Below the pieces are notes generated by a model, which was given only the letters and a program-made list of their open reading frames with translations, had not been told where the DNA came from and made no database searches. A stretch of DNA of 64,000 nt from a phage, in the NCBI GenBank assembly GCA_033286805.1, contig GCA_033286805.1_4727.1. One strand, written 5' to 3'. The position numbers were made by a program, and so were the translations under genes. The stretch's first letter is position 1; the number at the start of each line of letters is the position of its first letter. Below are positions 4,507 through 47,655 of this stretch, one piece after another.

Positions 4507-4554
4507 GTGTTGTCTCCAGTAATGATTCAAAAGATAAACCTGAGCGGCATAGAA

Positions 4555-4586
4555 CCCTCTCCCAACCCGTCAGGGAAGGGAGAGGG
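4555..4586. terminator. hairpin element CCCTCTCCC-AACCCGTCAGGGAA-GGGAGAGGG
   Basis: Perfect 9-bp stem; flanks CATAGAA and AATATG; between the stop at 4609 and the start at 4506. Confidence 0.65.
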
Positions 4587-4608
4587 AATATGTCAGTTTA
4601 TTAACTGA

Positions 4609-5931
4609 TTACTGCTGTGCTGCGTCAGCCGGTTTCTCAGCCGCCTGGCCGCCGTACTCTTTCAGCATTTTAGCAACGCCATCCAGGACAGCGTTACCTG
4701 CCTGAACACCGTATTTCATCAGACCGGTCTGCGGGTTCACGTAGCAGGAACGTGCGTCTTTCAGCGCAGACAGTACAGCTTGAACACGCTGTTTTTCCTG
4801 AGCGGAAACTTCGCCTTTCTTAGACAGATCGGCTTCCATATCGTCACCGAATTTAACAGCGTCTTTGAAGCCCTGGGATTTCTTACCGATGTTGCCTTTC
4901 AGCGCCAGCAGTTTGTCAGCCAGTACTTCAACACCGCTAACCGCAGCAGCCAGCTGGTTCAGGGACAGGACGGTAGCTTCAACTTCTTTTGCTTCGCCGG
5001 TGCGTTCCCAGGTTACTTTACCATCGTTGGCTTTGAAACCCCAACCTGCCGGACCAGCAACGTCAGCAATCGCCGGAGCGTTCAGTTTATCAGCGTACTC
5101 GGTGTGAGATTTAGCAACAACGGTACCAACGAATTTATCAGCGCGATCGTCAGCAGCCTTCATTGCTTTCTCGAAGGTGTCAGCGATTTTGGTCGCGCCG
5201 GTAACCAGATCGTCGCCACCGATGTAGCCAGAAACGCCGCTACCCAGTTTAACTTTGGTATTTTTAGCAGCGCCTTTACGTTTGGCGATCATTTCTTTCA
5301 GTTTAGCGGCACGTGCTTTCAGCTTGGTTGCGCCGTCGAAGATACGATCCATGAACTTCACGAAGGTTTCCCAGGAAGTCTTCAGGAAGTTCTTGATGGT
5401 TGCCCACAGTTTCTGCCACCATTTTTGTTCTTCCAGGAAGATCATGTTGGTTGCATCGTAGCGGGAAGCGGAACCACCGAAGCTTTCGAAGGACGGCATG
5501 GTTTCCGGCAGTTTGAAACCGATAGTACCGCACAGACGTTTCAGATTACGCATGTGTTCCTGAGCGGTTTGTGCAGACATACCACCGTCTTTCAGGTAGC
5601 TTTCGGTTGCAACAACGGTTTCCGTCAGTTCATCCATGGCTTCGTCCATGGCTTCTGCGGTTTCGTCGTCTTTTGCAATTTCGATAACAACAGCATCAAC
5701 CTGCTCGATATCACCACGAACTTCGATAGCCAGTTCGGTTTCAGCTGCGGTATCTTCAGCGATTTCAGCACGTTCGGTCAGTTCAGCCACAACGGTTTCA
5801 TCCGCTGGTGCAGCATCAGCTGCCGGTTCTGCTTCAACGGTTGCCGCTGCATCCGGATCGATCTCAGCAGCCAGTTGAACCAGCTGTGCGTTAGATGGAT
5901 TTGCGACAAGACGATCAAAAATAGAAGGCAT
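4609..5931 (-). CDS. putative virion protein with acidic Ala/Glu/Asp-rich N-terminal region
   Basis: 440-aa ORF, ATG with AAAGGAAAC SD; the antisense 390-aa ORF is Cys/Phe-rich and was rejected. Confidence 0.7.
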   Translation of the reverse strand: MPSIFDRLVANPSNAQLVQLAAEIDPDAAATVEAEPAADAAPADETVVAELTERAEIAEDTAAETELAIEVRGDIEQVDAVVIEIAKDDETAEAMDEAMDELTETVVATESYLKDGGMSAQTAQEHMRNLKRLCGTIGFKLPETMPSFESFGGSASRYDATNMIFLEEQKWWQKLWATIKNFLKTSWETFVKFMDRIFDGATKLKARAAKLKEMIAKRKGAAKNTKVKLGSGVSGYIGGDDLVTGATKIADTFEKAMKAADDRADKFVGTVVAKSHTEYADKLNAPAIADVAGPAGWGFKANDGKVTWERTGEAKEVEATVLSLNQLAAAVSGVEVLADKLLALKGNIGKKSQGFKDAVKFGDDMEADLSKKGEVSAQEKQRVQAVLSALKDARSCYVNPQTGLMKYGVQAGNAVLDGVAKMLKEYGGQAAEKPADAAQQ

Positions 5932-12808: not shown

Positions 12809-12830
12809 AACAAAAATAGCATGAGCATAA

Positions 12831-12862
12831 CCCTCCTCCAACCCGTCAGGGAAGGAGGAGGG
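12831..12862. terminator. hairpin element CCCTCCTCC-AACCCGTCAGGGAA-GGAGGAGGG (bidirectional)
   Basis: Perfect stem between convergent genes (plus gene ends 12808, minus gene ends 12872). Confidence 0.7.
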
Positions 12863-12871
12863 AATATGTTG

Positions 12872-15800
12872 TTATCTTACGTTACTGCTATTCTGCTGTT
12901 CGCTGAACCAACCGTACACCTTGAGATCGGTACCATATCTCAGTGCGATATACGCATTCAGCGCAGCACAGAACAAAGACGCGAATGCCCATATCAGCGA
13001 AGGATCAACATCTTCCGTTACCACTGGGAGAGTATTATCCGGTTCCCATGATGGAGAACTGTCCATGAACGTCGTGTACCATTCCCGCCGTTGTTCTTCA
13101 GTGGTAAAGTCGCTATGGGGTTCCAATGCTTCTTTTGCCAGACGTCGATATTCGAACATATGCGTTGCTAAAGCCGATGAGTTACCAGATTCGCCTTCAT
13201 AGTTCGGATCCACCGCATAACAGAGTTCTGTGGAATCTAACAAAGCGACCGCCTGTGTGATGCTGTCGGCAGTGCCTGCACCATAGAGCTCGATAGACCG
13301 CGAGAGCTTCTCACAGAACGCATTTAACGCGGCAGGATTGGACACCTGAAGGTCAAGGCCTAATGTCCACGGATAGTTACTGAATACACCCGTAAACCGC
13401 GGCATAACACCCAACAGATGTTGTCCGATTACAGCACGGTTATAAACAGCCCGGTTATAGACTTGAAACGCAGCCTCCAGGGCTTGGTTATAATGACGAC
13501 GAAGTTCATCACGCGTGTTGCGGAACCTGTTTGCCGCGAGACTTGTGGCTGCAACGCTACAAACATCGTAATTGGTGGACGAGAGCACAACCTCGTTAAG
13601 ATCGAACGATTCCTGTTTCAATGTTCCGCTAACAGCTGCCGCTTCGCTGTTCGCTTTATCGACAACTGTACTCAAAGCGTTGATGTAACGTTTAGCTCGG
13701 ACCTCCAACCATTGTGCGATGCCGAGAATATCCACCGCAGCTTTAGCAAGATCGCGTGCATTCACGATTTCGTTCTTCAACGCCCCTAAACCTTTATTTT
13801 CAGGCGATGAGGCTTGTTGACGAATCATGCTGTTCAACATGGTAAGCAGATTATCCAACTCATGTCCGCTGACCTTGTTACGCGCATCGGTAATCGGCCC
13901 TTGCAGGAATTTACGGCAACCATCGTTGTATCGAATCAGTTTATCCACATCGATAGATTCGTTCGTAGATTCCTTGAACTGATCCTTCAATTCTTCACGG
14001 TAGTCGTGGATTTCACTTGCGAGATTATCGATAGTGATACCGTCATGTCCAAGAAGAACTTTATTGAAGTTACCTTTCTCGAATGCCAGAGCAAGACCTT
14101 CACGAATCTTAGCGAGTTTATCCTGATCGAGTTCACGACCGTTCGATAGCTCTTTCACTTCCGAGCTGATTAATGCCGAAACGTTACCCAGATTGTCGGT
14201 AACTCCTTTGAACGCTCCCGACCAAATCGTTCCTACTTCAGCATATTTCGCAATGGTCTGAATACCGACGGTGTGTAGCGACGCTAAACGTTTCTTCGTG
14301 CCTTCGGTAAGCAGAGCGTCTTTAGCTCGCGTAAGCTGACTGTTATTAGCTTCCGCCTGCTGAATCGCTGCTTTCGCACTTCCATTACGCCAGCTCTTAA
14401 CCAGCCAATCAACCAAACGTTTTAGGATATTGACGGTGTATTCCATTGTCCGCCGTAACGTTTCCCACGCGCTTTCTGCGGTATAGATGCCGTACCCTTC
14501 CATCTTCAACGCTTTCAAGCTTGTTTGACGTGCCAACCATTCTACCGTTGCAGAGCAAACGTTTACTAATGCTTCCAGGTAGTTGTAATAGACGTCTGTT
14601 GCAGTTGTTTCGTTGAACTTTGAATGCAGATAGAACTGATCGTAAAGTTCGTCGTCATCGCCGAAGGCATCATAGTTCCACAGTTCTGTATCACAACCTG
14701 TACCGCAGAAGACGTCAGCTGTCGTAAACTCTTTAAGCGCTTTAGCTGCGTCATTTGTCAGGAATTTACCTGTTTCAACTACATCGTCAACATTAAGCTT
14801 GGGGAGTTCGTCGGTGACTGGCTCTTCCAACATCAGCATATTGAAGAATGTGCTGTACTTGTATCCGAGCCATTTTGGATAACTGCTTTCAGGGATCGTA
14901 GACAGCGGCTTGATTTTCTTGGCTTCAGCCAATGTGTCTTTTGCGACCTGATATTGGTTTTCCCCAGCCTTGACGCGACGTAATGCTTTTTCTTCCAACT
15001 GCTTAAGCTTGGCATGGCGTGCTTGTGCTGGAGCTTCAACAAGTTTTTGTACCGACCGCATTGCAGAAATCGCTTCTTTTAATACGATCATCGGCATACG
15101 AACTTTACCGTCGTCGAAACTAAGAGCGCGAGCGACACGTTTACTTACGACCGGCTTATCATGGATATTTCGTTCCACCCACGATTTGTTTGCGTAAGTT
15201 TGAGCGATCTGCTGTTGGATATTTTCAAGGTATTTCCAGCTGCTGGATGCTTTATTATCCAAAAGCGGATTCGGTCCCTTCTTATCGAAAAGTTTCAGAA
15301 TCGGACCAAAGAAACCTTCCTGTACGAGTTCGATACGCGTGTATCCGTCAGCCGCTTCGATTTCTTCTTGGGTTTTGTCCCAGAGCTGTTCACTACGGAC
15401 AGCAGTAGCTGTTTCAGATACCGACATAACAAGCTCGGCAACAACTTCAGCGCAGGTCAGTACGGTACGCACGCATTGCAGTAGCATACGCTGGTAAACG
15501 ATACGGGCGTTTTGTAAACGTGCGATAACCGCTAAATAACCGATATTGTCAAGACGTTCGTCGGCTTGAGCAGAGTCAACACGTTCTATCAGTTGTTTAA
15601 CCAGCGCGGCTGTTTCCGGATAATCGTTCACGACGTCACGCATAATTCGTGATGCGAAAACCGCGGTACCTAAAACAGTGAGGAGTGTTTTACTATCCCA
15701 TTCTTTTGGTGTCGCTACCGATTCAGTAGGGATGAGATTTCCCGCCTGGTCGAAGTACGGCATAAGGACATTGATATCAGTAGACGGAACAGCAGTAATT

Positions 15801-33939: not shown

Positions 33940-33955
33940 CGCAACGGTAACATAA

Positions 33956-33987
33956 CCCTCTCCCAACCCAGCAGGGAAGGGAGAGGG
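33956..33987. terminator. hairpin element CCCTCTCCC-AACCCAGCAGGGAA-GGGAGAGGG (bidirectional)
   Basis: Perfect stem between convergent genes (33939 and 34005); flanks CATAA and CTTATG. Confidence 0.7.
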
Positions 33988-34004
33988 CTTATGCTGTTAT
34001 GCTA

Positions 34005-34379
34005 TTAATGTTCGTTCCAGATGGCATCTTCCGGTGGAACAATAGGATCTTTCTTCGGCATTGATGGCACTTCATGACGATGTTTACGGAACTGCCTATC
34101 AATAACCTCACGAAGCCGGTACGCGTCAACCCATGTTGATTTATTGAACAGCTCCAATGTCACAGTTAATCGTGTTCTTGACATTGAATAGCTTTTCTTT
34201 GCAATCAAATTGGGATAATTCAGTTGAGCGAACCACGCACGTATTTGTGCTTCGGTAAAAGCGATGCTGTAATAACTAAGTTTACCGTCATTAAAATCGT
34301 GCGCGTGGGTGTAGCGTCCAGCGTAACGCCAGACAAGATGCACATTCAGATCGATCCATGGTGGGGTGGTATCAGCCAT
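34005..34379 (-). CDS. hypothetical protein
   Basis: 124-aa ORF, GAGGG SD. Confidence 0.55.
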   Translation of the reverse strand: MADTTPPWIDLNVHLVWRYAGRYTHAHDFNDGKLSYYSIAFTEAQIRAWFAQLNYPNLIAKKSYSMSRTRLTVTLELFNKSTWVDAYRLREVIDRQFRKHRHEVPSMPKKDPIVPPEDAIWNEH

Positions 34380-34979: not shown

Positions 34980-37592
34980 TTAAGCGTCCGGCGTAAAATC
35001 AAAAGGAATGTCCGTACGAATGATATCGTAACGTTTTCCTAGGAAATAAAACTCTTCGGGAACCTGACCAGGAATAATGCTATCGCCGATGAACTGCGGA
35101 TACGCCCAGATGTACTGAGTGAGTCCTTCGAACATATCCAGGTTATTTGCATGGTTACCCATGATACGTTTCCAGAGTTCGCGTTTATACGGTGTTTTAA
35201 CATCGAATCCATAAAGCGGTGCAAGATCTTCACCAGGAACAAATCCCAGGTAATAATGGATCTGACTAACCGGGAAACCAAGCGTATCTCGCGGAATGGT
35301 GATCGCTTGCTCTGCCTTGGTGACATGCGTCTCAATAATCCAGTCGTAGCACTCCGAATAGAACCGGTCGAATTTCTCTGGGTTATACCACGCTTTGGGA
35401 AGATTGAGTTTCTCCGTGAACGCGTTCGACATGATCGTCGGCAAGAACGGAAGAACACCGGTTTTGATCTGCGTGTATTTCGATTTTACCCGATTAACCA
35501 AATTCCAGCAACTGTATCCTAACTGTTCGTTACAAAACTCAACGTAGAGATCGTAGTCACCACCGGATAATGGGTTGTTAATATCACCGATGTCTGCGGC
35601 ATATTTGTTGGGATATCGGTTATTGAAAGCCAGTTTGGTTTGGTAATCGTAGATACACGGTTTGTTGTTCGCTGTATTGATCCACCACCAGGGTTCACCT
35701 ACTTGCACACAAATGTCCTGGACATGGGGGTAGATGATATCAGCAAACGCGGTTAACACATCCCCTAACCACGCCATCGCCTGTTGGTTACATGGAGACA
35801 GCAACCAGGACGGTGGTGTGTATCCGGTTGCTGCGATGTTTCCTTCCCAATCCTGCTGCGCCCACTCGAACGGGCAGGCTGTACTCATCAATTCGTAACT
35901 TAAACTGATGGTGACAGAGAAATGGTGTTTTGCGGCGTATGCAGCGAAAGCTTCATGCCATGCGATACAGGGTGGATTTAATACATCCGTGGTGTTCACC
36001 AGTAACTTACCTGCACTTGGCGTCCAGACAGTATCGTAGAAATGCGACATTCCAACATAGTGCACTAATTCATCCTGATATCCAGCATAAACCAGGTTTT
36101 CAAATACACGCTCTGGCGTGATGTTGTAATGGTCATCATAAGCGGTTATCGCACGAAGTTCGTGTGGCGTACAATGATGGCGATTAACCGTCATTTCCTG
36201 ATACACCCCATCGATAGGAAGAATCTCGAGGGTTAAACCAAGATCGATCGGTGTTTCCAGATAGGTCGTTTCTGTAGCACCTTCTTTATAATGTCGAGAA
36301 CTCATGCTGAACATCAACGACGTTACCGATTCGAGTTCGATAGGCTCGTCAGCATAGAACCCCGCCATTGCGTCATTGAAATCGATCGTTACGATTGCGC
36401 TTCTACCGTCTTCAGAGACATCGGTGGCGTATCGGGTTAATGAGATATACTGACGGCTATCGTCTTTGTGTACGACGGTTAAAACCGGCGGGTTTTCGGT
36501 ATCTGCAAAGTTACGCTGATCGCCAGTAAACGTGATCTTCGCTTTAAAGATCAAACCGAATAACGACGTCATGGGATCATACGCAATACAACCGTGATCC
36601 AGCGTATCCGTTGTCCGCCATTCTATCCCGACCAACCCGTTAGCGGTATGGCATCGCATATACGCATTAAGGACCATGTCTTCACTGACAACCGCGAAGT
36701 TCTCTGTTGACTGACCGTTGATAATCCAATACATCGGTTGCCAGAGGTTACGCGTACCTTTTGCGTAGCGGTAGGTTGGCGCGCCTTTAGGGTTGCCGTT
36801 ATTAAGATGGAATACAGCAGTACCTTGATAATGGTCGTTCGTATTAATCGGAACACTGTAAGCATCACCGAGATCCGTACGTTCCACCTTCTTGACTGTT
36901 GCGTTTTCAAATAACCCACGCAGCGCGGGTAAACCGATATCATCAGGCGCGTTTTCTCGACGAATCGCATCCGCGATGCGGTGGGCTAGGGCGGGGTAAA
37001 TGGTCTCACCCTGTTGTAGGTTTGCAAGACCTACAAAGCGATCGGGAGCGATGCCAGCAATCAATAACTCAACATCACCCTTCGTTCTATCGTCATTAAG
37101 ATATTTCAGTCCGGTAAGGTCAAGATGCTGAATAAGCGACAACAGGTTGTATTTACGGTTTTCAACAGTTAGTACAAGATCGCCTGCCCAAACCAAACTT
37201 CCCTCATCCGCTGTTACTTTAACGGATTGTCGGCCTGTGGTAGACGTTGTTGTCGTTTTATTTAATTGTCCTTGTAGGAAGTCGGTTGCGAGGTCAAAGG
37301 CAATACCGTAACGGTCAGCGACCGCTTGCATGATTTCACGTAACTGGGTATCTTCTTCAATGATAATCTTGACAGGTATTCCCAAGAACGCTTTAGCGAG
37401 GTCTCGTTTAACCAACGAGACGAATACGGATTTGTAGTATCGGCTTCCATCTTTCCCTTTAAAAAGAATGGAGGTTGTTTCGGGTGCCGATAGAACACGT
37501 GCAAATACAACATCGTCGGAAGTAAGAGAAAGTCCGTTTTTCTCGTTGACCAATCTTAGTATTTCATTTTGCGCGGTTTCATGTAACTTCAT
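34980..37592 (-). CDS. putative tail fibre/tailspike-like protein (870 aa) with shared N-terminal domain
   Basis: N-terminal ~110 aa (RDLAKAFLGIPVKI) paralogous to the 43326-43853 and 47669-48499 products. Confidence 0.55.
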   Translation of the reverse strand: MKLHETAQNEILRLVNEKNGLSLTSDDVVFARVLSAPETTSILFKGKDGSRYYKSVFVSLVKRDLAKAFLGIPVKIIIEEDTQLREIMQAVADRYGIAFDLATDFLQGQLNKTTTTSTTGRQSVKVTADEGSLVWAGDLVLTVENRKYNLLSLIQHLDLTGLKYLNDDRTKGDVELLIAGIAPDRFVGLANLQQGETIYPALAHRIADAIRRENAPDDIGLPALRGLFENATVKKVERTDLGDAYSVPINTNDHYQGTAVFHLNNGNPKGAPTYRYAKGTRNLWQPMYWIINGQSTENFAVVSEDMVLNAYMRCHTANGLVGIEWRTTDTLDHGCIAYDPMTSLFGLIFKAKITFTGDQRNFADTENPPVLTVVHKDDSRQYISLTRYATDVSEDGRSAIVTIDFNDAMAGFYADEPIELESVTSLMFSMSSRHYKEGATETTYLETPIDLGLTLEILPIDGVYQEMTVNRHHCTPHELRAITAYDDHYNITPERVFENLVYAGYQDELVHYVGMSHFYDTVWTPSAGKLLVNTTDVLNPPCIAWHEAFAAYAAKHHFSVTISLSYELMSTACPFEWAQQDWEGNIAATGYTPPSWLLSPCNQQAMAWLGDVLTAFADIIYPHVQDICVQVGEPWWWINTANNKPCIYDYQTKLAFNNRYPNKYAADIGDINNPLSGGDYDLYVEFCNEQLGYSCWNLVNRVKSKYTQIKTGVLPFLPTIMSNAFTEKLNLPKAWYNPEKFDRFYSECYDWIIETHVTKAEQAITIPRDTLGFPVSQIHYYLGFVPGEDLAPLYGFDVKTPYKRELWKRIMGNHANNLDMFEGLTQYIWAYPQFIGDSIIPGQVPEEFYFLGKRYDIIRTDIPFDFTPDA

Positions 37593-38256: not shown

Positions 38257-38438
38257 GGTGTTGTCCTATACGTTGGTGGTTGAGGTGGCGGATATCGGAT
38301 GCGTGTTGTCGTCAGGTAATACATACAGAAACGCCCACTGATAAAACAGTAGCTTCTTTTAAATGGAATTTAGATATCGCGTATTTCTACCTCGTTTCTA
38401 TTCTCAAAAAGGAAATTTCATACGATGACGCCATAGCA

Positions 38439-38468
38439 GCTCCTCCTTCCCTGACGGGTTGGAGGAGC
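38439..38468. terminator. hairpin element in inverted orientation (GCTCCTCC-TTCCCTGACGGGTT-GGAGGAGC)
   Basis: Same stem and loop as the 12831 element, reverse-complemented; 9 nt past the lipoprotein gene stop. Confidence 0.65.
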
Positions 38469-38476
38469 ATACTTAA

Positions 38477-38983
38477 TTACTTACTGATAACCTCAACGGA
38501 GTTGGGATCAGCGATCAATGCACGGTCGGTAGAACAATTGAAGAAGACCGTACCAACACCATCACCGTTCGAGTTCAGGGTTGAACTTGCGTAAGACAGG
38601 GTTGGTTTATTCATGCGGTAGAAGCGTTCGCTGGTTGCGGTATTGAACCCCAGGTCAACGTAGTCTTTCACCGTGGTATACAACTGGGTGGACTCGAAAA
38701 CGGTTACCGGAGAGTCGACGGTAAATTGACTGCCTTCGTCCACAACCAGAACTTTATCGTTCCAGATTTCAGTGGTTGAGAACTTCGGTTTCCAATGTTC
38801 GAATTCCTGGGTTGCACCCCAGCAAGAATACACAGCGAGATTGCTGTTCTTCTCGACAGGTTTCAACCCCACCAGTTGTGTCAGGTCTTTATCCAGGTTC
38901 GGTAAACCTTCCAGCGTAGCACACCCACCCAGAGAAAGCACCATTAGCATACCAAGAACGATCGCGCAAAGTTTCTTTGTCAT
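38477..38983 (-). CDS. putative lipoprotein
   Basis: Signal peptide with lipobox LSLGG-C (MTKKLCAIVLGMLMVLSLGGCAT); GAGGAAA SD. Confidence 0.65.
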   Translation of the reverse strand: MTKKLCAIVLGMLMVLSLGGCATLEGLPNLDKDLTQLVGLKPVEKNSNLAVYSCWGATQEFEHWKPKFSTTEIWNDKVLVVDEGSQFTVDSPVTVFESTQLYTTVKDYVDLGFNTATSERFYRMNKPTLSYASSTLNSNGDGVGTVFFNCSTDRALIADPNSVEVISK

Positions 38984-39024
38984 CGGATTTCCTCATGTGT
39001 TAACGGGAGTGATTTCCATAGTAA

Positions 39025-39441
39025 TTACACAGTTGTAGGAAATTCCGGCCAATCGATATTTGGTGCAGCATCGGTATCGACAGCAGTCACCGCATCAGTG
39101 TAATCCAAAACAGCATTAAGTCGGGTCGTTTCTTCCTGAGTCAGTTTTCGCCCAGCCCGTAATTTTAACTGAATAAGATCGATGGAAGCCAGCGCAGAAT
39201 CAATCAAAGATTGTTTTATCTGTTCTGCCTCGGCGACGAGATCTTCGTGTTGCCGCTCGGGTTCCGGAGGTGCGGTAAACTCACCATTTGAGTATGACCA
39301 ACCTATTCCAGGTGACACAGCCTCCTTATCGTCGATATGAACCAACTGCTGATTGTCGAATATATCGAGCTCTGCTTCACCGTCGTAAACAATCGTGTTT
39401 ACTACCACCCCATTTTCAATAACAGCGTATGATGTACTCAT
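39025..39441 (-). CDS. tail fibre assembly protein (Tfa-like chaperone)
   Basis: C-terminal NIDWPEFP resembles the Tfa C-terminus; TAATG overlap with the fibre gene; start moved to ATG 39441 with GAGGAG SD. Confidence 0.7.
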   Translation of the reverse strand: MSTSYAVIENGVVVNTIVYDGEAELDIFDNQQLVHIDDKEAVSPGIGWSYSNGEFTAPPEPERQHEDLVAEAEQIKQSLIDSALASIDLIQLKLRAGRKLTQEETTRLNAVLDYTDAVTAVDTDAAPNIDWPEFPTTV

Positions 39442-42400
39442 TACATAAACTCCTCGATGATGCAAATCCCATTAGCACCACGCCCACCAGGCTTAGCGGT
39501 TCCTGAGTAAGAGTTATCGTAAGCACCGCCACCACCCGAACCAGGCGCGAGGCCGTTATGGGCGGTGCCAACACCAGCGCGACCGCCACCGCCCCAATAT
39601 GACGCACCCCCACATCCACCGACGGCAAGAGTACCGGCTTGTCCATCGTTACCGTCTCCGCCCGGAATGCGTATATCCCCGGTAGTAGGTACGCCCCCAT
39701 AGCCACCGCCAGTGTTTGTGACAGTTGTTTTTCCTGCGCCTTGCCCGCCGGGAGCAGTTAGCAGGGATGCAAATTTACTATCCCCACCCCCGTTCCCAGA
39801 CGTCGCCCCAGAGCCACCGGAACCACCAGAACCAATTACAACAGAATAACTAGCAGCTGTTACCGTTATAACCGAAATTACTGTTCCGCCAGCGCCTCCC
39901 CCAGCGCCAAAAAACGTTTCGCTGTTGGAATAAGCCTGACAGCCACCGCCGCCACCGCCGCCACCGGTTATTGTTACTCTAATCCGTTTTGTTCCTTGTG
40001 TTGGGGTGTACGTCCCTGACGATGTGAAAACACGCATGTTCAGTAAACGTCCGACATATCCGCTAGAATCGGCTAAACCAAGATCTTTAGCTGCTAACGT
40101 GATATTAGCTGTACCGTCAAACGGTTTACCGTTAATCGTGCGCGCGGTCTGCAACTTCGTCGCCGTTGCTGCGTTTCCTGATGTGTTCTGGTTCCCCGCA
40201 GCGTTAACACCCGGCAGATTGATGTTCGCACTACCGTCGAAAGATACCCCACCAATGGTGCGGGCTGTTTTCAGTTTTGTCGCCGTGGCAGCATTACCGG
40301 TTGTGTCTTGGTTACCGGTGGTGTTTACCCCAGGCAGGTTGATATTTGCCGTTCCGTTAAATGAAACACCGCCAATCGTCCTTGCTGTTTGAAGCCTCGT
40401 CGCGGTAGCGGCGTTACCCGTCGTGTTCTGGTTTCCGGTTGTGTTCACACCAGGGATACTATCTTTCGAGGTGTAGATCTGTGCCCATTCTGACCAGTTC
40501 GAATCGGCCGCATCACGACGTGAACGTAGGTAAGCTGGAGCGTATGCACCTGAGGTACCTGACCACCCAATGAGGATTTCACCTTCACCGACCGATGAAG
40601 CCCCTTTAAGATGAATGACGTTACCATAAGCGGTGGGATACCCGTTATTGTACGCTTCATACATCTGGATGCCCGCATTGCTGCCCTGAGCCGTGTTAGC
40701 TAATGCCGTAACACGACCTTTGGAGGCGAGAGCGGTAATACTGAAGCTAATATCCTTAGTACCGTCAAAGGCGACCCCATTAATCTTCCGTGCTGTTTGG
40801 AGTTTCGTGGCGGTAGCCGCATTACCAGAGGTACTCTGATTACCTGCTTTGTTCACGCCAGGCAAATCAATGTTGGCTGTTCCATCAAAGGACACGCCCC
40901 CTATGGTTCTCGCTGTCTGGAGTTTTGTTGCTGAGCCAGCGTTTCCGGAAGTGCTTTGATTACCTGCCGCGTTGACACCTGGTAGGTTAATGCTAGCAGA
41001 GCCATCAAAAGAAACTCCACCGATCGTGATTGGTGTTTTCAATTTCGTGGCTGTCGCAGCATTACCCGTCGTATTCTGATTGCCAGCCGCATTAACGCCT
41101 GGTAATGCGATATCGGTCGTACCATCGAACGCGACACCACCGATTTTACGGGCAGTCTGTAGCTTGGTCGCTGTAGCCGCGTTGCCGCTGGTATTTTGCG
41201 TGCCCGCTTTATTTACGCCTGGTAAATCAATGTTCGCAGTACCATCAAAAGAAACACCCCCGATGGTTCTCGCGGTCTCAAGTTTGGTTGCGCTTCCTGC
41301 GTTTCCGCTGGTGTCTTGGTTTCCCGCTGCATCAACACCCGGTAGACTGATGCTGGCCGAACCATCGAAACTCACACCACCGATCGTAACAGCGGTTTTC
41401 AATTTCGTAGCGGTTGCAGCGTTCCCCGTGGTATTTTGGTTACCTGTCGCATTCACACCCGGTAATGCAATATCCGCTGTTCCGTCAAAGGCAACGCCAC
41501 CGATTCTACGTGCAGTTTGTAGCTTGGTTGCACTAGCAGCGTTACCGCTGGTATTCTGGGTGCCAGCTTTGTTAACACCAGGGAGATCGATGTTAGCAGA
41601 ACCATCGAAGCTAACGCCACCTATCGTTCTTGCAGTAGCAAGTTTAGCTGCTGTAGCAGCGGCGTTACCGACTTTTAACCATTCGCCCCATGGACCATCC
41701 TGGCCGTTCCATGATGCCGTTAAACTACGTACGTAAATATTGCCGGTACATACAGTGTAACGTTGCGTTCCACCGAATTGCCCGGTTGGGAGCACTTCAA
41801 TGTAACCTGCGGCATTTGCTTCAGGGAAATTGTGGGCGACGTCCGCGTTCGTTGATACTGGTTTAGACCAAATACCCACAGACGCTTCAACCGGACCGTA
41901 CGTATTCAGATTTGCGTCGGTGGGAAGTTGTCCTCGAAAACGCTGGAATTGTGTTGCCGATAACCCCAACGTTGTTTGCATGCTTTCAATGCTGGATTGC
42001 TGAAGTAACGTCCGTGCTGTCGACGTAATCACGGTAAGCGCAACTTTATTAACACCGGTGAAATACGGGAGTTTGTCTGCTGATGTCGCTAAACCTGAAA
42101 AGGCGGTCAGTAATGCGTTAAGGGGCTGCTTCCCAGCTAACGCATTTGTTACCGTCGTTGCGAAATTAGGATCACTTCCTATAGCTCGAGCCAGCTTATT
42201 AAGCGTATTTAGCGTCGCTGGTGACGAGTCGATCAGCGCCGTGATCGCACGCATCACAAATTCCGTGTTGGCTATCTGTCGACTGCTATTGTTAACTGCT
42301 GCGGTGGGCGCTGCTGGCGTACCAGTGAATACAGGGCTATTAAGATCCGCCTTGAGGGCGATGAGACGTTTAAGCGCTTCAACATCAACTTTCAGGTTTT

Positions 42401-43319
42401 CCCATCCGATGAGAGAACCACCACTGTTGGTATGATAACGGTTGTACCAGAAGTCACCGTTAACGCCAAAAAAGAATATACATTTCTCTTCGTTTTGTGG
42501 ACCGGAACTATTTCGTGATGAGTCGATATATTTGATTTCAATAAGACCGCTAAACACCACTCCTGGGATTATATTGTTGTCTCCAGCTGATTGTGATACT
42601 TGGTACATCCCCGGGGTTGCAGCTTTAACCCACGTTAAGAATTCTGTTACTCCAGCGTTACCGCTGAAACGCTTAACGTCGGTAAGTATCGCCCCATAAC
42701 CGAACATACCGGGTAAAGCAACTCGCCCATCGGTACGGTCACGAATATCTGTTGCAACAACAGGCAATTGTTTACGAACGGCATTAACCGCTTTAGGCGT
42801 GGCCGATTTTGTCTCGTCGTCGCTATCGGTTTCATTACTTAGAATAGTTAAACCGCGTGTAGTAGTAGTTGCATCAGGAAGAAATGCGTTATCCAACACC
42901 TTAAGCTGTACTGCACTCGTATTACTAACAACGACATGCACTTGACAGTTAAGAACGCTGGTTGCGCCTTCGGCAGGCGTAGGCTTATATCTTTCTGGTG
43001 CACTGCAGACGGCAATCAGAACACCTTGGTCGTCATACAGACCGATCTCACGTACCCAGAACCCACCTTGACCAGCAGGAATAATACCCTCAACGATAAT
43101 CCTAGTTGTGCTATCACCATCCGCATGGATATTAGAAACTTCCCCACGATAAACTTCGTGAACAAGCGCTGTTTGGCTGGCGGTAGGGGTTGGGATCGAG
43201 CCGTTACCATCACCAACGGCAAAGTGTGTGATTTTTAGTTTCTCACCGTCGGGAAGTAACGCAGCGGTGATACGTTCTGCTCCTTTATCGGTAACTACCG
43301 TTATATATGCTGTACTCAT
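39441..43319 (-). CDS. tail fibre protein (1292 aa) with tandem repeats and glycine-rich C-terminus
   Basis: N-terminal KITHFAVGDGNGSIPTPTASQTALV (P2 H / side-tail-fibre-like); more than 10 repeats ending GNAATATKL; Gly-rich C-terminus; Tfa gene immediately downstream. Confidence 0.8.
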   Translation of the reverse strand: MSTAYITVVTDKGAERITAALLPDGEKLKITHFAVGDGNGSIPTPTASQTALVHEVYRGEVSNIHADGDSTTRIIVEGIIPAGQGGFWVREIGLYDDQGVLIAVCSAPERYKPTPAEGATSVLNCQVHVVVSNTSAVQLKVLDNAFLPDATTTTRGLTILSNETDSDDETKSATPKAVNAVRKQLPVVATDIRDRTDGRVALPGMFGYGAILTDVKRFSGNAGVTEFLTWVKAATPGMYQVSQSAGDNNIIPGVVFSGLIEIKYIDSSRNSSGPQNEEKCIFFFGVNGDFWYNRYHTNSGGSLIGWENLKVDVEALKRLIALKADLNSPVFTGTPAAPTAAVNNSSRQIANTEFVMRAITALIDSSPATLNTLNKLARAIGSDPNFATTVTNALAGKQPLNALLTAFSGLATSADKLPYFTGVNKVALTVITSTARTLLQQSSIESMQTTLGLSATQFQRFRGQLPTDANLNTYGPVEASVGIWSKPVSTNADVAHNFPEANAAGYIEVLPTGQFGGTQRYTVCTGNIYVRSLTASWNGQDGPWGEWLKVGNAAATAAKLATARTIGGVSFDGSANIDLPGVNKAGTQNTSGNAASATKLQTARRIGGVAFDGTADIALPGVNATGNQNTTGNAATATKLKTAVTIGGVSFDGSASISLPGVDAAGNQDTSGNAGSATKLETARTIGGVSFDGTANIDLPGVNKAGTQNTSGNAATATKLQTARKIGGVAFDGTTDIALPGVNAAGNQNTTGNAATATKLKTPITIGGVSFDGSASINLPGVNAAGNQSTSGNAGSATKLQTARTIGGVSFDGTANIDLPGVNKAGNQSTSGNAATATKLQTARKINGVAFDGTKDISFSITALASKGRVTALANTAQGSNAGIQMYEAYNNGYPTAYGNVIHLKGASSVGEGEILIGWSGTSGAYAPAYLRSRRDAADSNWSEWAQIYTSKDSIPGVNTTGNQNTTGNAATATRLQTARTIGGVSFNGTANINLPGVNTTGNQDTTGNAATATKLKTARTIGGVSFDGSANINLPGVNAAGNQNTSGNAATATKLQTARTINGKPFDGTANITLAAKDLGLADSSGYVGRLLNMRVFTSSGTYTPTQGTKRIRVTITGGGGGGGGCQAYSNSETFFGAGGGAGGTVISVITVTAASYSVVIGSGGSGGSGATSGNGGGDSKFASLLTAPGGQGAGKTTVTNTGGGYGGVPTTGDIRIPGGDGNDGQAGTLAVGGCGGASYWGGGGRAGVGTAHNGLAPGSGGGGAYDNSYSGTAKPGGRGANGICIIEEFM
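40094..41654 (-). repeat. in-frame tandem coding repeats (~42 aa / ~126 bp units) within the tail fibre gene
   Basis: Repeated TARTIGGVSFDGSANIDLPGVNxxGNQNTSGNAATATKLQ units in two blocks; mirrored by antisense repeat ORFs. Boundaries approximate. Confidence 0.7.
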
Positions 43320-43325
43320 GGTGTT

Positions 43326-43853
43326 TTATCCTGGATAAATAGTGATGATATCACCAATGACGGTTGTGGCACCGGCGTAAAGATGAGCCGGAGATACATC
43401 ATGTTGGTTTGTCACAGTAAGATCCAATCGACCACGCCAAACCATGGAGGTATTCGCGATGGGGATAGAAATCTTTTTGGATATATCGTCACGAAAATCA
43501 ATAACAGTGGCAAGGGTAACCGCATCAAAATCAACATCGGGATCAAAGACGAACCCGTATTGATCTGAAATCGCCCGAATAATGGCATGTATAGTTGTTG
43601 TCTCAACAGACTCTAAAACGATTTTTACCGGTATTCCTAAAAATGCCTTCGCGATATCGCGTCGGGCGTAAACGATAAAGCATTCACCGCACCACTTTGT
43701 TCCTTCATTTGCTGTGACGATCACTTTTGCCCTGTTAGCACCAGAACTCCCATCCAAGGTTAATGTAAGATCGGAGTTGCTGAACACGCTACCGTTACGT
43801 TGGTTTATCAACGTAATCAGTTCGTCTTTCCATGGTGGGTAAAGTGAACGCAT
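43326..43853 (-). CDS. hypothetical tail protein with shared N-terminal domain
   Basis: RRDIAKAFLGIPVKI segment; start moved to ATG 43853 with GGAGGAGGG SD. Confidence 0.55.
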   Translation of the reverse strand: MRSLYPPWKDELITLINQRNGSVFSNSDLTLTLDGSSGANRAKVIVTANEGTKWCGECFIVYARRDIAKAFLGIPVKIVLESVETTTIHAIIRAISDQYGFVFDPDVDFDAVTLATVIDFRDDISKKISIPIANTSMVWRGRLDLTVTNQHDVSPAHLYAGATTVIGDIITIYPG

Positions 43854-43894
43854 AAGCGCACCCTCCTCCAACAATCAAATTAAGATATATAACT

Positions 43895-43998
43895 CCTCGA
43901 AACCAAAGTGCGATTCGAGGTAAGCGTAAACAGTCCAGACGACCGCATAAAATTCCGCGCATATTACCCCTCTACCCCGACAAAGCGAGATAGAGGGG
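43895..43998. terminator. two hairpins (CCTCGAA...TTCGAGG and CCCCTCTA...TAGAGGGG)
   Basis: Inverted repeats at 43895-43920 and 43967-43998 in the 184-bp intergenic region. Confidence 0.5.
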
Positions 43999-44058
43999 AG
44001 GTTAATACGATTATGCTATTGCACTCCAAAGTTCATGGGGCGGTAACCGCCCCATCGG

Positions 44059-47000
44059 TTAAATTGTCGGTTTTACATCACGTAATAAGGCAATATAATA
44101 GCCTAATCCTCGGAGGATCTCCCCACTCCAGAAACCAAAATACATTCCGTCTCTGCCGAGATTAGCGCTATCTGGTGCGGGACTCCACCCACCGTTCATT
44201 ACGTCATCAACGGTGTAGCGGTTGATGTAGTTCTCAACGATTTCGTTATACGCATTAACAGCAACAGAATAGCCTTTATCGTTGGGATGTCCGTACAACA
44301 TTGCTAACGACGCACCAGCCAACCATAATCCTGCCATGTGACCAGTAAAGTCATTAGGGATAAAAGCAGGGGGTTTATCCATCGGAAAATCCGTAGGAGA
44401 TTGATAGGCGTTTTCCTGTTGATACGTAAACAAGAAATCAATCCAATGACTGATGTAAGTGGTTAATTTCTCAGGGACGGCTAAACCACGATCAAGCAGT
44501 CCAGCATAAAGCCGCACCGCTGAAAAGAAAGCCCTCGGCTGATAACCAGACCATGCTGTCTGATCGCCGAAATGGTACATCGTAAAATCATTAACTTTTG
44601 ATCCGCTTGGCGCATCCCAACGATCCCACACGTACGCACTTGCCCCTGGCCCTAAAACCCCGAATTTCTGATAATACCACTGCTGCGAGTCATACCAGAA
44701 ATTCACAACATTCTGAATCATGAGGTCACGTCGTTCAGCCGATACGTCCATATCCAGGAAGACCCATGGATGTTGGTAGCCGGGATAAGGCTGACCACGC
44801 CAACTGTCGAACGTCGGTGCGTTAGGGATATAGTTGTTAGAGAACGGAATAATACCCGGAGTATAAGGCAATGGATCCAGACGTTGGTTGACAATCGTAC
44901 AATCGCCAACACGTAATGTTCCCTCCGCCTCAAAGGTTGCTTTTAACGTAAACAGCATGGTATATCCGTCATCCGTGGTGTAAGTTGACGGTGGATTGTT
45001 GATAGCGTAAAGCTTAAATACCCCTTCAGCGATATCGCTGTCATCAGGCAAGAACAGAATTTCAGTTGAGCCATCACCCCACACAGGTGCAGAAGGTTTA
45101 GGGTCAGTGTCAACATGGTTCGGTTGATACCCTGAGAGCGTCCACCCATTCGCCGAAAGCGTCAATGTATTTCTTGCTGTGGTGGCCGGTAGCATATACC
45201 ACCATCGCCAACCATTTGCATCTTCTACACGAACGTTGTAGTCAATCGACGCGAAATAACTGACCTGCCTTACGATCTGTTTTGCGGTTGGATTGAATTC
45301 AAATTGCCCGCCTGCCGCAGTAAGCTGCGCTTTTAGGAACAACCCATCCCAGGAATCTTCCACCGCTTCGCTGAATTCTGTTGTAATTGCGACATCGTCT
45401 TTCCAGCCGACTTTATCAGCCGATATCAACACAGAACCTGTAACAGCATCGCCGGTTGGCGTTGAAGCTTCATCAACCGCATCAGCAGGAATCAACGAGC
45501 CTATTTTGAAATCCCATTCTTTCGGCTCAGCACTGGAAGGTAATACCAGCTTGTATGTTTTGGCTTTCGCTTCGGTTTTGTCCAAAGAAAGCGATAATGA
45601 GATCTCAACCGGAATTGCAATACCTGCCGTATCCTTACCTCCGCAGGTTACACGAAGAATTGAATTACGATTGACACGGAACGGAATGGCCTGCTGTTCA
45701 AGATAAATTTGTGCTGAAGATGCTTGAATCACGATCCAGCCATCGGTATCACGTGTGATTGTGAACGGTGCTTTCGATGGGTACGTATACGTGTAAGCGA
45801 TACCGTCGGTGTCGTAACGATCGGTTCCTTTTACTTGACGGAAGAACTTATCGTTGGCGTCAATACGGGTATATTCTTCAATCGTAAACAAAGATGCCTT
45901 GTACGCTTTCTGATAACGCTCCTGCTGCGTTAAACGATATAAGGTGTAGGCTGCTTCACAAAACCATTGTTCGGCGTCTGACGCGTTTCCCATGTAGTCT
46001 CTGGTGACCGGCACCTGGATCGGTCGGTTATGCTGACACTCGTTCGTTTTGATGAGGTATCCGCCATATTCAACAGGAACACGCGGTGCCCATGCAACCA
46101 AGTAAGAACCGCTGACGGATTTATCTTTGAGTACGATGGTACCTACCTCATCGTCAGTACACGCTTCAAGATCGTCTCCGTCAGCACTTACGTAACGTTT
46201 TGTGCGTAACGCAACTTTCTCGATAGGGAACACCGTACCCTTTGTATCCCAGTCAATCGTCCCATCATCATTGGTTTTGAACACATCGGCGTTCAAATTC
46301 TGCCAGCCGAGTTTACCCTCATAGACCTGAACAACAAGATCCATGTATTCCCCGAACGTTGGTGCCCCATGTGTTATTTTTCCAATACCGTTGGTGAATG
46401 TAACCGCTGTGTCATGGAAACCGCCATGTGTTGGGTAATCGTCTTTTGCAAGAGGATAATGGGCCAACACAGGTTGTTTACCATTAACAATCCAGTTAGC
46501 GATCCAGCGTGTCGGTGTATCCGGTGGTTCAAGGCCTGCATAGAACGCTTTTATATACGCATCGAACGATGTCTCTGCTAATGTGAGATAATGCGCTTTA
46601 AGCTTGGTGTCATCCGTTGTATGACTGAATATACCCGCACCCAGAATTAACAACGACTGTCCTTCTGTTGTTGCGTCACCATCCGGTTGTGCTTCTTGTC
46701 GTGTTGCTGCAATGAAATGACGGTTGTTTACCATGACCCCGCTTTCATTTAACACGTAATGATCGGTTTCTGGGTCGGTAAACGTTCCTGTGTTTCGGGT
46801 TAAGAATCTTGCATGGCCATAACCAACGAAATTAACCGGCGACGCTGTAATCACCCATTTACCGATAAGTTGAGCAACATCATTATAACGCTCGGATGCG
46901 GTGATTTGTTTCACGTACCAGTCTTTATGGTTAAATGTCCAAAGCAGGAAGTAATAAGTTGTATCGATTTCCATCACTGGGAACGTCGGCGTTAACGGCT

Positions 47001-47655
47001 CCAGCATTAAGTAGTTGCTCCAGTCAATCTGTCCGCCAACAACCGATGGGGTAATCTCTAATAACTGACACCATTCATAACGGTCCGGTACACTACTGTA
47101 CGTTGTTGGTAAAGGTAACTTGTATACGCCAGTACGATTCAGATCGAACGCTTTTCTAGCCGATCCTAAATCAACATAAATACTCGACGATGTGCTTGCA
47201 TCAGATGCCTCCAAAGCACCTAACGTTGACCGATACATTGAGATGAACAACGTATCTTTCCAGTAAGGGTTATCCTTGATTGGTTCTAAAGCGATTTGTG
47301 CGGAGATGCTGTTCTGTGTCCCTAACTGGTATGTTGCATTTAAAGATTCTTCTGTGAAATAACTTTCTGCAATCGTCAGATGGAACTGCTCGTTCAATAA
47401 CGCGAGTGCGGCGCGGCCAGTAACATCCTCGTTACCGGTTTCTTTTTTCACGATCGCGCCGAACGGAAACAGTGTCGCGAATGACCGTTTTGGTTTATTA
47501 ACCGTAACCGTCCCTGTGTAATTTCCAACACCGTCAAGTTTTTGACTATCGCCAACAGCAGTGACTGCGATACCATCAGCCGGGATATTTGTTTTATTTA
47601 GCACATTGAGTTGGTCAACCAGATCCTGCTTATCGTCAGGTAAGAATGTCGCCAT
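44059..47655 (-). CDS. large tail-associated protein (1198 aa)
   Basis: Long ORF, AAGGTGGAG SD, located within the tail-fibre module. Confidence 0.6.
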   Translation of the reverse strand: MATFLPDDKQDLVDQLNVLNKTNIPADGIAVTAVGDSQKLDGVGNYTGTVTVNKPKRSFATLFPFGAIVKKETGNEDVTGRAALALLNEQFHLTIAESYFTEESLNATYQLGTQNSISAQIALEPIKDNPYWKDTLFISMYRSTLGALEASDASTSSSIYVDLGSARKAFDLNRTGVYKLPLPTTYSSVPDRYEWCQLLEITPSVVGGQIDWSNYLMLEPLTPTFPVMEIDTTYYFLLWTFNHKDWYVKQITASERYNDVAQLIGKWVITASPVNFVGYGHARFLTRNTGTFTDPETDHYVLNESGVMVNNRHFIAATRQEAQPDGDATTEGQSLLILGAGIFSHTTDDTKLKAHYLTLAETSFDAYIKAFYAGLEPPDTPTRWIANWIVNGKQPVLAHYPLAKDDYPTHGGFHDTAVTFTNGIGKITHGAPTFGEYMDLVVQVYEGKLGWQNLNADVFKTNDDGTIDWDTKGTVFPIEKVALRTKRYVSADGDDLEACTDDEVGTIVLKDKSVSGSYLVAWAPRVPVEYGGYLIKTNECQHNRPIQVPVTRDYMGNASDAEQWFCEAAYTLYRLTQQERYQKAYKASLFTIEEYTRIDANDKFFRQVKGTDRYDTDGIAYTYTYPSKAPFTITRDTDGWIVIQASSAQIYLEQQAIPFRVNRNSILRVTCGGKDTAGIAIPVEISLSLSLDKTEAKAKTYKLVLPSSAEPKEWDFKIGSLIPADAVDEASTPTGDAVTGSVLISADKVGWKDDVAITTEFSEAVEDSWDGLFLKAQLTAAGGQFEFNPTAKQIVRQVSYFASIDYNVRVEDANGWRWWYMLPATTARNTLTLSANGWTLSGYQPNHVDTDPKPSAPVWGDGSTEILFLPDDSDIAEGVFKLYAINNPPSTYTTDDGYTMLFTLKATFEAEGTLRVGDCTIVNQRLDPLPYTPGIIPFSNNYIPNAPTFDSWRGQPYPGYQHPWVFLDMDVSAERRDLMIQNVVNFWYDSQQWYYQKFGVLGPGASAYVWDRWDAPSGSKVNDFTMYHFGDQTAWSGYQPRAFFSAVRLYAGLLDRGLAVPEKLTTYISHWIDFLFTYQQENAYQSPTDFPMDKPPAFIPNDFTGHMAGLWLAGASLAMLYGHPNDKGYSVAVNAYNEIVENYINRYTVDDVMNGGWSPAPDSANLGRDGMYFGFWSGEILRGLGYYIALLRDVKPTI

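Follow-up and report, generated by a model that had tools for sequence, protein, structure and literature searches.

Introduction

Modular evolution of tail fibres is textbook phage biology. Nucleus-forming jumbo phages evade many host defences, which makes them of interest for therapy. Escherichia phage vB_EcoM_Goslar is such a nucleus-forming jumbo myovirus with a genome of 237 kb (Chimalliviridae, Goslarvirus). Here we examined the tail-fibre locus of a relative of Goslar. It is located in a stretch of 64,000 nucleotides (nt) of phage DNA (contig GCA_033286805.1_4727.1 of GenBank assembly GCA_033286805.1; this entire stretch is termed the window below). On the minus strand the locus comprises a long tail-fibre gene coding for 1292 amino acids (aa; 39441..43319) and the gene of a tail-fibre assembly chaperone, Tfa, of 138 aa (39025..39441). 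The two genes very probably encode a Goslarvirus long tail fibre and its dedicated chaperone, which would operate by the four-part mechanism outlined in the Discussion.

The Goslar orthologue of the fibre, gp090, was annotated in 2019 as 'tail fiber protein, similar to gpS of P1'. Mass spectrometry identified it in purified virions with 35 peptides and approximately 29-68 copies per virion; in cryo-electron microscopy (cryoEM) of Goslar the peripheral baseplate and the fibres were not resolved (10.64898/2026.04.21.720040). Genome-wide screens placed Goslar at lipopolysaccharide (LPS) 'GluII' with the genes galU, hldE and waaF, and list its receptor-binding protein as unknown (10.64898/2026.04.02.716166).

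For the tip of this fibre with its chaperone the nearest solved analogue is the gp24-gp25 complex of cyanophage Pam3 (7YPX, 7YFW). There, a TNF-like sheet runs into a glycine-rich lattice of 12 motifs, and variable distal loops are the proposed receptor binders. The N-terminal beta-sandwich of the chaperone binds the glycine-rich tip and its C-terminal helices trimerise; according to the Pam3 authors, the gp24 tip structurally resembles gp38 of phage S16 (PMC9608196). Other parts of the locus have counterparts in the fibre systems gpH/gpG of P2 and gpS/gpU of P1/P7, temperate phages of 30-100 kb which carry different tips. P1 switches its tips by inversion. In contrast, the window phage, to all appearances a chimallivirus of ~237 kb, displays tip variation between genomes, not within one.

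Results

Fibre and chaperone genes

The fibre-Tfa region (window 39000-43900) was 91% identical in nucleotide sequence to Goslar, and the genes flanking the fibre locus were 93-95% identical. Judged from the DNA, the window comes from a relative of Goslar; its source phage is very probably a member of Goslarvirus, i.e. of the nucleus-forming jumbo myoviruses that infect enterobacteria. The fibre open reading frame (ORF) is the orthologue of gp090 and matched PHROG tail-fibre families with E-values of up to 1.8e-275. The Tfa gene is the orthologue of Goslar gp089 and matched PF02413 (Caudo_TAP; E 6.8e-21, 75 bits at a cut-off of 22.1) and PHROG 188 (E 8e-26). At the junction of the two genes, ...ATGTAATGAGT..., the ATG of Tfa uses the last A of the fibre stop codon TAA, i.e. 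the reading frames overlap by 1 nt in TAATG. Goslar has the same flanking genes and the same 1-nt overlap; aa identities were 99-100% in the fibre N-terminus, 98% in the glycine-rich tip and 90% in Tfa.

The N-terminal aa 1-141 (42897..43319, minus strand, as are all parts of the fibre) constitute a P2 gpH-like domain, presumably for attachment to the baseplate. It matched PF12571 (Phage_tail_fib) with an E-value of 1.6e-41 and 142 bits at a cut-off of 23, and the match includes KITHFAVGDGNG at aa 29-40. Over this segment the fibre was 47% identical to gpH of P2 and Wphi, and 99% to Goslar. Besides Goslar, nothing in the phage collection was closer to this N-terminus than P2-like gpH, and no closer jumbo phage was found there. 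An initial annotation, made from the letters of this DNA, had described a tail fibre with a P2-H-like N-terminus and a glycine-rich C-terminus, followed by a Tfa chaperone in a TAATG overlap. The domain matches, the junction sequence, the identity to P2/Wphi gpH and the orthology to gp090/gp089 bear out this description, as do the family match and the glycine content of the C-terminus reported in the following section.

A single Phage_fiber_2 motif (PF03406, E 5.5e-9, one stretch) follows at aa 151-182 (42774..42869). Three inserts outside of the repeats contribute to the shaft: insert 1, presumably a globular shaft domain (aa 185-320; 42360..42767), insert 2 (aa 451-549; 41673..41969) and insert 3 (aa 870-965, 96 aa; 40425..40712), which separates two blocks of repeats. 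None of the three matched Pfam at E-values up to 10 or NCBIfam, and BLAST detected no similarity among them; that they are globular 'knob' domains is a guess. The Goslar virion peptide AAGYIEVLPTGQFGGTQR falls into insert 2 (10.64898/2026.04.21.720040). Between inserts 1 and 2 is a conserved fibre motif, ...DSSPATLNTLNKLARAIGSDPNFATTV... (aa 357-416; 42072..42251), which matched PDB 9d93 ('Tail collar fibers, gp4', E 3.8e-8); this was the only match in a PDB sequence search with the whole fibre. It is followed by an allelic linker patch (41922..42054) which differs from Goslar. In the fibre-Goslar alignment identity drops to 16-52% at columns 401-500 (window aa ~401-468), and by blastn the patch had no homology to Goslar or the related locus L015, but was homologous to L005, L013 and L014. 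The fibre is a mosaic, its parts being common to many phage fibres and here set on the chassis of a chimallivirus.

The glycine-rich tip

The C-terminal domain (aa 1080-1292; 39444..40082) is glycine-rich and the presumed receptor-binding tip. Its aa 1100-1289 matched PF21722 (Gly_rich_2) with an E-value of 1.2e-11, or 2.1e-12 when the domain was scanned alone (45.5-48 bits, threshold 24.3; the match spans positions 2-224 of the 226-position profile). The tip core, aa 1118-1292, consists of 34% glycine and has 11 glycine-rich motifs. Pam3 gp24 likewise has a glycine-rich C-terminal tip, with 39% glycine and 12 motifs, and both tips end with G-I-x-I-hydrophobic-x-x-F. Unlike the window fibre, that of Pam3 has a length of 280-289 aa and an alpha-helical stalk, and the sequence similarity is marginal (E 0.2-0.03). 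The Pam3 fibre (7YFW/7YPX) was the top PDB match of the tip in phmmer, yet weak (E 0.21; 0.027 with a prophage homologue). With hhalign an E-value of 0.0035 at a probability of 9% was obtained over 184 collinear columns, collinear to the last residue and with a heavy glycine bias. With alignment A1 as the query profile, the PDB yielded no matches. A Pam3-type fold of the tip is likely but unproven.

The gp38 proteins of T2 and S16 resemble the window tip in that glycine-rich motifs alternate with variable segments at the tip of a fibre. In the window, however, the domain is part of the fibre itself, whereas gp38 is a monomer of its own which caps gp37. The tip had no match to Pfam GP38 at E-values up to 10; PF21722 was its sole Pfam match.

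Many E. coli homologues of the glycine-rich domain carry the source name 'carbohydrate kinase', from which one might take the C-terminus to be an enzyme instead of a binding tip. These homologues, however, are encoded where Mu-like prophages have their tail-fibre gene, between the Mu gp45-48 baseplate genes and Tfa. They match PF21722 only and no kinase family, and among solved structures their closest relative is the tip of a fibre. An enzyme at this position is extremely improbable, and the name 'carbohydrate kinase' of the Mu-like prophage fibres (E. coli L010, L011, 5001-5927) is almost certainly a mis-annotation, which looks as if it was set off by the glycine runs.

Tip and Tfa as an exchangeable cassette

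We compared the locus with those of relatives. Nucleotide homology to four fibre loci with other C-termini (L003, L005, L006, L007) stopped at 40077-40095, inside the last repeat unit, and resumed at 39020, just past the stop codon of Tfa. Therefore, the glycine-rich domain and Tfa are swapped as one unit, a cassette of ~1.06 kb (39021..~40080, minus strand). At least three C-terminal types were present among the fibre orthologues: first, the glycine-rich type ending with ...GICIIEEFM; second, a type ending with FAG..GATN.GY which had no Pfam match; third, Peptidase_S74 types with their own intramolecular chaperone domain. A Tfa gene was present in all seven glycine-rich loci (window, Goslar, L013, L014, L015, L016, L017) and in none of the four others, a split among related loci which reports linkage, not eleven independent events. 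In the four loci lacking Tfa the fibre is directly followed by the gene of a 168-aa protein, which in the window is the next gene after Tfa.

The two halves of Tfa differ in conservation. The C-terminal half (aa 62-135) was ~70% identical to Tfa of P2, HK97 and SfIV and was the sole part shared within the phage collection. The cognate Tfa of the Mu-like prophages was 67% identical over the full length, the alternative prophage Tfa 37% and in the C-terminal half only. A PDB search with Tfa gave nothing meaningful. This split, with an N-terminal half shared only with the cognate prophage Tfa, would fit the Pam3 model by analogy; Pam3 gp25, too, is phage-encoded and has a variable N-terminal and a conserved C-terminal half (PMC9608196). 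For Pam3, release of the chaperone has been proposed (PMC9608196). By contrast, Goslar gp089 was detected along with virions, at ~35-82 copies per virion and roughly equimolar with gp090, an estimate from 2 peptides in a preparation which also held non-virion assemblies (10.64898/2026.04.21.720040). This near-equimolar amount, from two peptides, suggests that Tfa stays attached to the fibre and is not set free.

Where does the cassette occur elsewhere? Over its whole length the tip was 70-74% identical to 308-aa E. coli proteins in the fibre slot of Mu-like prophages. The order of genes there is Mu gp45-48 baseplate genes, the 308-aa fibre, a 136-aa Tfa, an inverted second Tfa, an alternative fibre end and a resolvase fragment, i.e. 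a G-segment-like invertible region. Identity to the window extends from 'LGL.D.SGYVGR' to the C-terminus; for the cassette in the invertible region it was 73% in the tip and 67% in Tfa, and the TAATG junction is the same. The architecture differs: in the prophages a short N-terminal part of ~95 aa precedes the tip, which has one alternative and a resolvase gene beside it, whereas in the window it caps a shaft of 1079 aa. An invertible host-range switch of the Mu G-segment or P1 C-segment type was considered for the window and rejected, as we found neither an invertase, nor an alternative or second cassette, nor inverted repeats flanking 39021-40080 within the 64 kb.

By megablast, fibre and Tfa had no match in 5,426 complete E. 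coli genomes, and no recent donor was found. A raised GC content as a sign of foreign origin was dismissed. The GC content at third codon positions (GC3) was 0.418 in the tip and 0.403 in Tfa, at the low end of the range of the neighbouring genes (0.41-0.56); therefore, the excess GC stems from the codons for glycine and alanine. The initial annotation had taken the fibre for a horizontally acquired host-range module. A delimited swap cassette and its presence in Mu-like prophages agree with this, yet the sequences carry no sign of a recent transfer.

The repeat array

The shaft contains 11 tandem units with a period of exactly 40 aa (120 nt) in two blocks. Block 1 (aa 550-869; 40713..41672) has 8 units in the pattern a-B-C-A-B-C-A-b in a 120-nt register, block 2 (aa 966-1085; 40065..40424) has 3 units, X-Y-Z, where Goslar has 4. 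The initial annotation had counted more than ten repeats of ~42 aa in two blocks; blocks and number hold, and the period is 40 aa. The units were 42-93% identical in protein and 43-78% in DNA. Block 1 has a super-period of 360 nt, with 70% nucleotide identity at this offset versus 62% at offsets of 120 and 240. Tandem Repeats Finder reported no DNA array in the repeat blocks because the units are too diverged; therefore, the repeats were defined on the protein. A repeat search on the DNA recovered the 120-nt register at 60-73% identity.

The 40-aa unit matched no model in Pfam (E-values up to 10) or NCBIfam. The possibility that it is a Phage_fiber_2 unit was rejected since PF03406 matched the fibre once only, at aa 151-182. 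The unit is not private to this locus. It was also present in the fibres of P1, P7 and RCS47 (Sc and Sv'), of 9g, JenK1 and SSU5, and in T4-like cyanophage, Acinetobacter and Aeromonas fibres.

Tandem repeats are generally open to mis-assembly, and Goslar has 7+4 units instead of 8+3. Could the array thus be an artefact of collapsed or expanded repeats, which the initial annotation had named as a concern? At the DNA level the units are scrambled. Identical residues in different units use the same codon in only 33%, and exact matches between units do not exceed 14 nt, which is below any assembler k-mer or read. This, together with 43-78% nucleotide identity, makes an assembly artefact very unlikely. 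Further, the identical 1292-aa protein was present in an independent assembly (SRR24668568), and the 8+3 architecture was seen again in other samples, with two different C-termini. In view of these data we give an artefact next to no credence and take the 8+3 array as genuine.

Length variation among relatives

The fibres of window and Goslar were 92-100% identical in most alignment windows of 50 columns, with three discrete differences. Relative to Goslar gp090, block 1 has one unit more and block 2 one unit fewer, both in register with the 40-aa unit, and the other linker allele in Goslar is 32 aa longer (1324 versus 1292 aa in total).

Repeat number was then compared among relatives. A protein search retrieved at least 120 clusters of full-length fibre orthologues, and each repeat unit was classed against the unit types of the window. 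Many of the clusters came from contigs of 233-247 kb, either from metagenomes or from assemblies labelled E. coli, Salmonella or Shigella. Lengths rise in steps of 40 aa (1132, 1172, 1212, 1252 and 1292 aa). We distinguished ~30 complete in-register architectures with 3-8 units in block 1 and 0, 3 or 4 units in block 2. Forms of block 1 were aBb, aBCb, aBCAb, aBCAAb, aBCABCb, aBCBCAb, aBCABCAb and others, those of block 2 XYZ, XYYZ, XXYZ and YYZ. In orthologues of 956-996 aa insert 3 was absent and block 1 was fused to block 2 (aBCYZ, aBXYZ). The longest arrays were 8+3, as in the window, level with 7+4. The modal array, 5+3 (aBCAb|XYZ), was combined with all three tip types; therefore, array and tip vary independently. 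The window array corresponds to the 5+3 form plus one A-B-C block of three units, in line with an offset of 360 nt against L014 and the super-period of 360 nt.

The expectation in the initial annotation that the repeats render the gene prone to length variation is met by the ~30 architectures in the population, with the reservation that the DNA of the units is too diverged for simple slippage. This divergence argues against replication slippage as the source of variation; recombination in register, either among diverged units or among relatives that infect the same cell, appears likelier.

As an aside, contigs of ~236-239 kb with Goslar-like fibres (P0007, P0010, P0017, P0034, P0053 and others) were contained in assemblies deposited for isolates of Salmonella enterica, Shigella flexneri and E. 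coli. Goslar-like jumbo phages thus seem to accompany or contaminate sequenced cultures of enterobacteria frequently.

Gene neighbourhood

The fibre locus is part of a tight minus-strand gene block. First in order is a gp092-like tail protein (44059..47655), followed by a gp091-like DUF7941 protein of 182 aa (43326..43874), fibre, Tfa and the 168-aa protein (38477..38983). A promoter and terminator scan was near the expectation from shuffled sequence (5 promoter-like sites versus 7.5 expected, 10 terminator-like sites versus 6.1) and gave no informative site.

The 168-aa protein has a lipoprotein-type signal peptide, MTKKLCAIVLGMLMVLSLGGC, and matched nothing in Pfam or NCBIfam. Its Goslar orthologue, gp088, was among the most abundant proteins of virion preparations (20 peptides, 78% coverage, ~490-1160 copies per virion; 10.64898/2026.04.21.720040). 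A role as a tip-linked exclusion protein which blocks the receptor was considered and rejected because the gene is kept beside every fibre-tip type among the relatives and because of this high abundance of the orthologue.

Directly after the 168-aa gene, at 38421-38467, is an inverted copy of an intergenic GC-rich hairpin, AACCCTCYYCCAACCC..CAGGGAAGGRGRAGGG, often followed by AATATG, which also occurs at 1847-1885, 4553-4622, 12829-12898 and 33954-34023 (plus strand). The copy is near 38373-38387, where L005, L007 and L015 have an extra gene. The hairpins probably are terminators or regulatory stem-loops.

Between the gp092 and gp091 homologues five relatives (L005, L006, L013, L014, L017) have an extra gene for a protein of 583-584 aa with DUF7941 and DUF285. 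At this site window and Goslar have a gap of 184 nt only (window 43875-44058). The extra gene is a candidate for a second variable host-recognition determinant adjoining the fibre. A DUF7941 N-terminal module is common to the 182-aa gp091 homologue and to an 870-aa protein (34980-37592, minus strand) which further has non-contractile-tail-sheath N-terminal and TIM-barrel domains; the two proteins flank the fibre locus. The Goslar cryoEM preprint proposes that the DUF7941 module forms head-to-tail filaments, a 'fibre cloud' (10.64898/2026.04.21.720040).

In one metagenome contig of 183 kb (L004, IMG/VR UViG_3300045988_173921; 3871-4843) the whole fibre ORF was missing while Tfa and flanks were kept. 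The gp091 homologue was joined straight to Tfa at the 9-nt string ATGAGTACA, which is the start of both the fibre and the Tfa gene. Also missing from the contig were gp093 and the greater part of gp092; either a deletion variant or a mis-assembly could account for it.

Discussion

From the gene identity, domain composition, cassette boundaries, tip-Tfa linkage and repeat polymorphism described above we infer how fibre and chaperone might work. First, the fibre would assemble as a homotrimer and attach to the peripheral baseplate by its P2-gpH-like N-terminus. Second, its shaft would be built from the non-repeat inserts and the eleven 40-aa units, the number of which would set fibre length. Third, the last 213 residues would form the glycine-rich tip that contacts the receptor on the host; in view of the receptor screen with Goslar, this receptor most probably is the outer core of LPS. 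Fourth, translation of Tfa would be coupled to that of the fibre through the TAATG overlap. The cassette-specific N-terminal half of Tfa would bind the tip, the conserved C-terminal half would drive trimerisation, and Tfa probably stays on the mature fibre. In the population, host range would shift by swaps of the tip-plus-Tfa cassette, and fibre length by in-register recombination between repeat units.

Several points weigh against this picture. The tip-Pam3 match is weak and compositionally biased, and an AlphaFold2 model of the tip from a 20-sequence alignment was unusable (predicted local distance difference test score, pLDDT, of 37.9). In Jedunavirus phages the glycine-rich domain is found on a stand-alone protein of 285 aa, with no Tfa gene downstream. 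Therefore, the pairing of tip and Tfa is common but not universal, and a neighbouring Tfa is not always needed. The assignment to LPS concerns Goslar, not the source phage, and is not tied to gp090. Moreover, Goslar has further candidates for host recognition, e.g. gp025 and DUF7941 proteins (10.64898/2026.04.21.720040). Relatedness of the compared loci and the small number of Tfa peptides, as noted above, point in the same direction.

Is the fibre then merely an accessory, dispensable aid in adsorption, similar to lambda Stf, with the essential, irreversible binding of the receptor left to other baseplate proteins or to the DUF7941 'fibre cloud'? Goslar virions carry gp025, a protein with a tail-fibre domain, at a higher estimated copy number, ten Goslar DUF7941 proteins are proposed as host-recognition filaments, and the receptor screen did not name a receptor-binding protein. 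The contig without the fibre ORF would agree with dispensability as well, yet with 183 kb, a metagenomic source and other gaps it may be defective or mis-assembled. Against an accessory role, a full-length fibre is kept in more than 100 orthologue clusters and has diversified as primary host-range determinants do. On balance, an accessory role appears improbable and we favour a long tail fibre that determines host range.

The gene represents a typical mosaic tail fibre, one allele of a fibre that has been annotated before. With the exception of the unnamed 40-aa repeat and the three inserts, all of its elements belong to described families. A bolder and tentative reading is that the fibre locus of Goslar-like chimalliviruses is a host-range device with two dials, a plug-in tip cassette and a codon-scrambled 40-aa array. 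Possibly, the first dial consists of tips, i.e. glycine-rich with a virion-retained Tfa, FAG..GY, or self-chaperoning S74, that are exchanged with the invertible segments of Mu-like prophages. The second might be the copy number of the repeats (3-8 plus 0-4), which in-register recombination would reshuffle and which would tune the reach of the fibre, e.g. through O-antigen of varying thickness to the LPS core.

Independent of this reading, the locus offers a tip-plus-chaperone cassette of ~1 kb with clean boundaries and natural alternatives, that is a testable receptor-binding candidate, and a natural series of shaft lengths in which fibre length can be tested against adsorption. If the locus indeed has two dials, receptor class and reach could be inferred from sequence and engineered in nucleus-forming phages.

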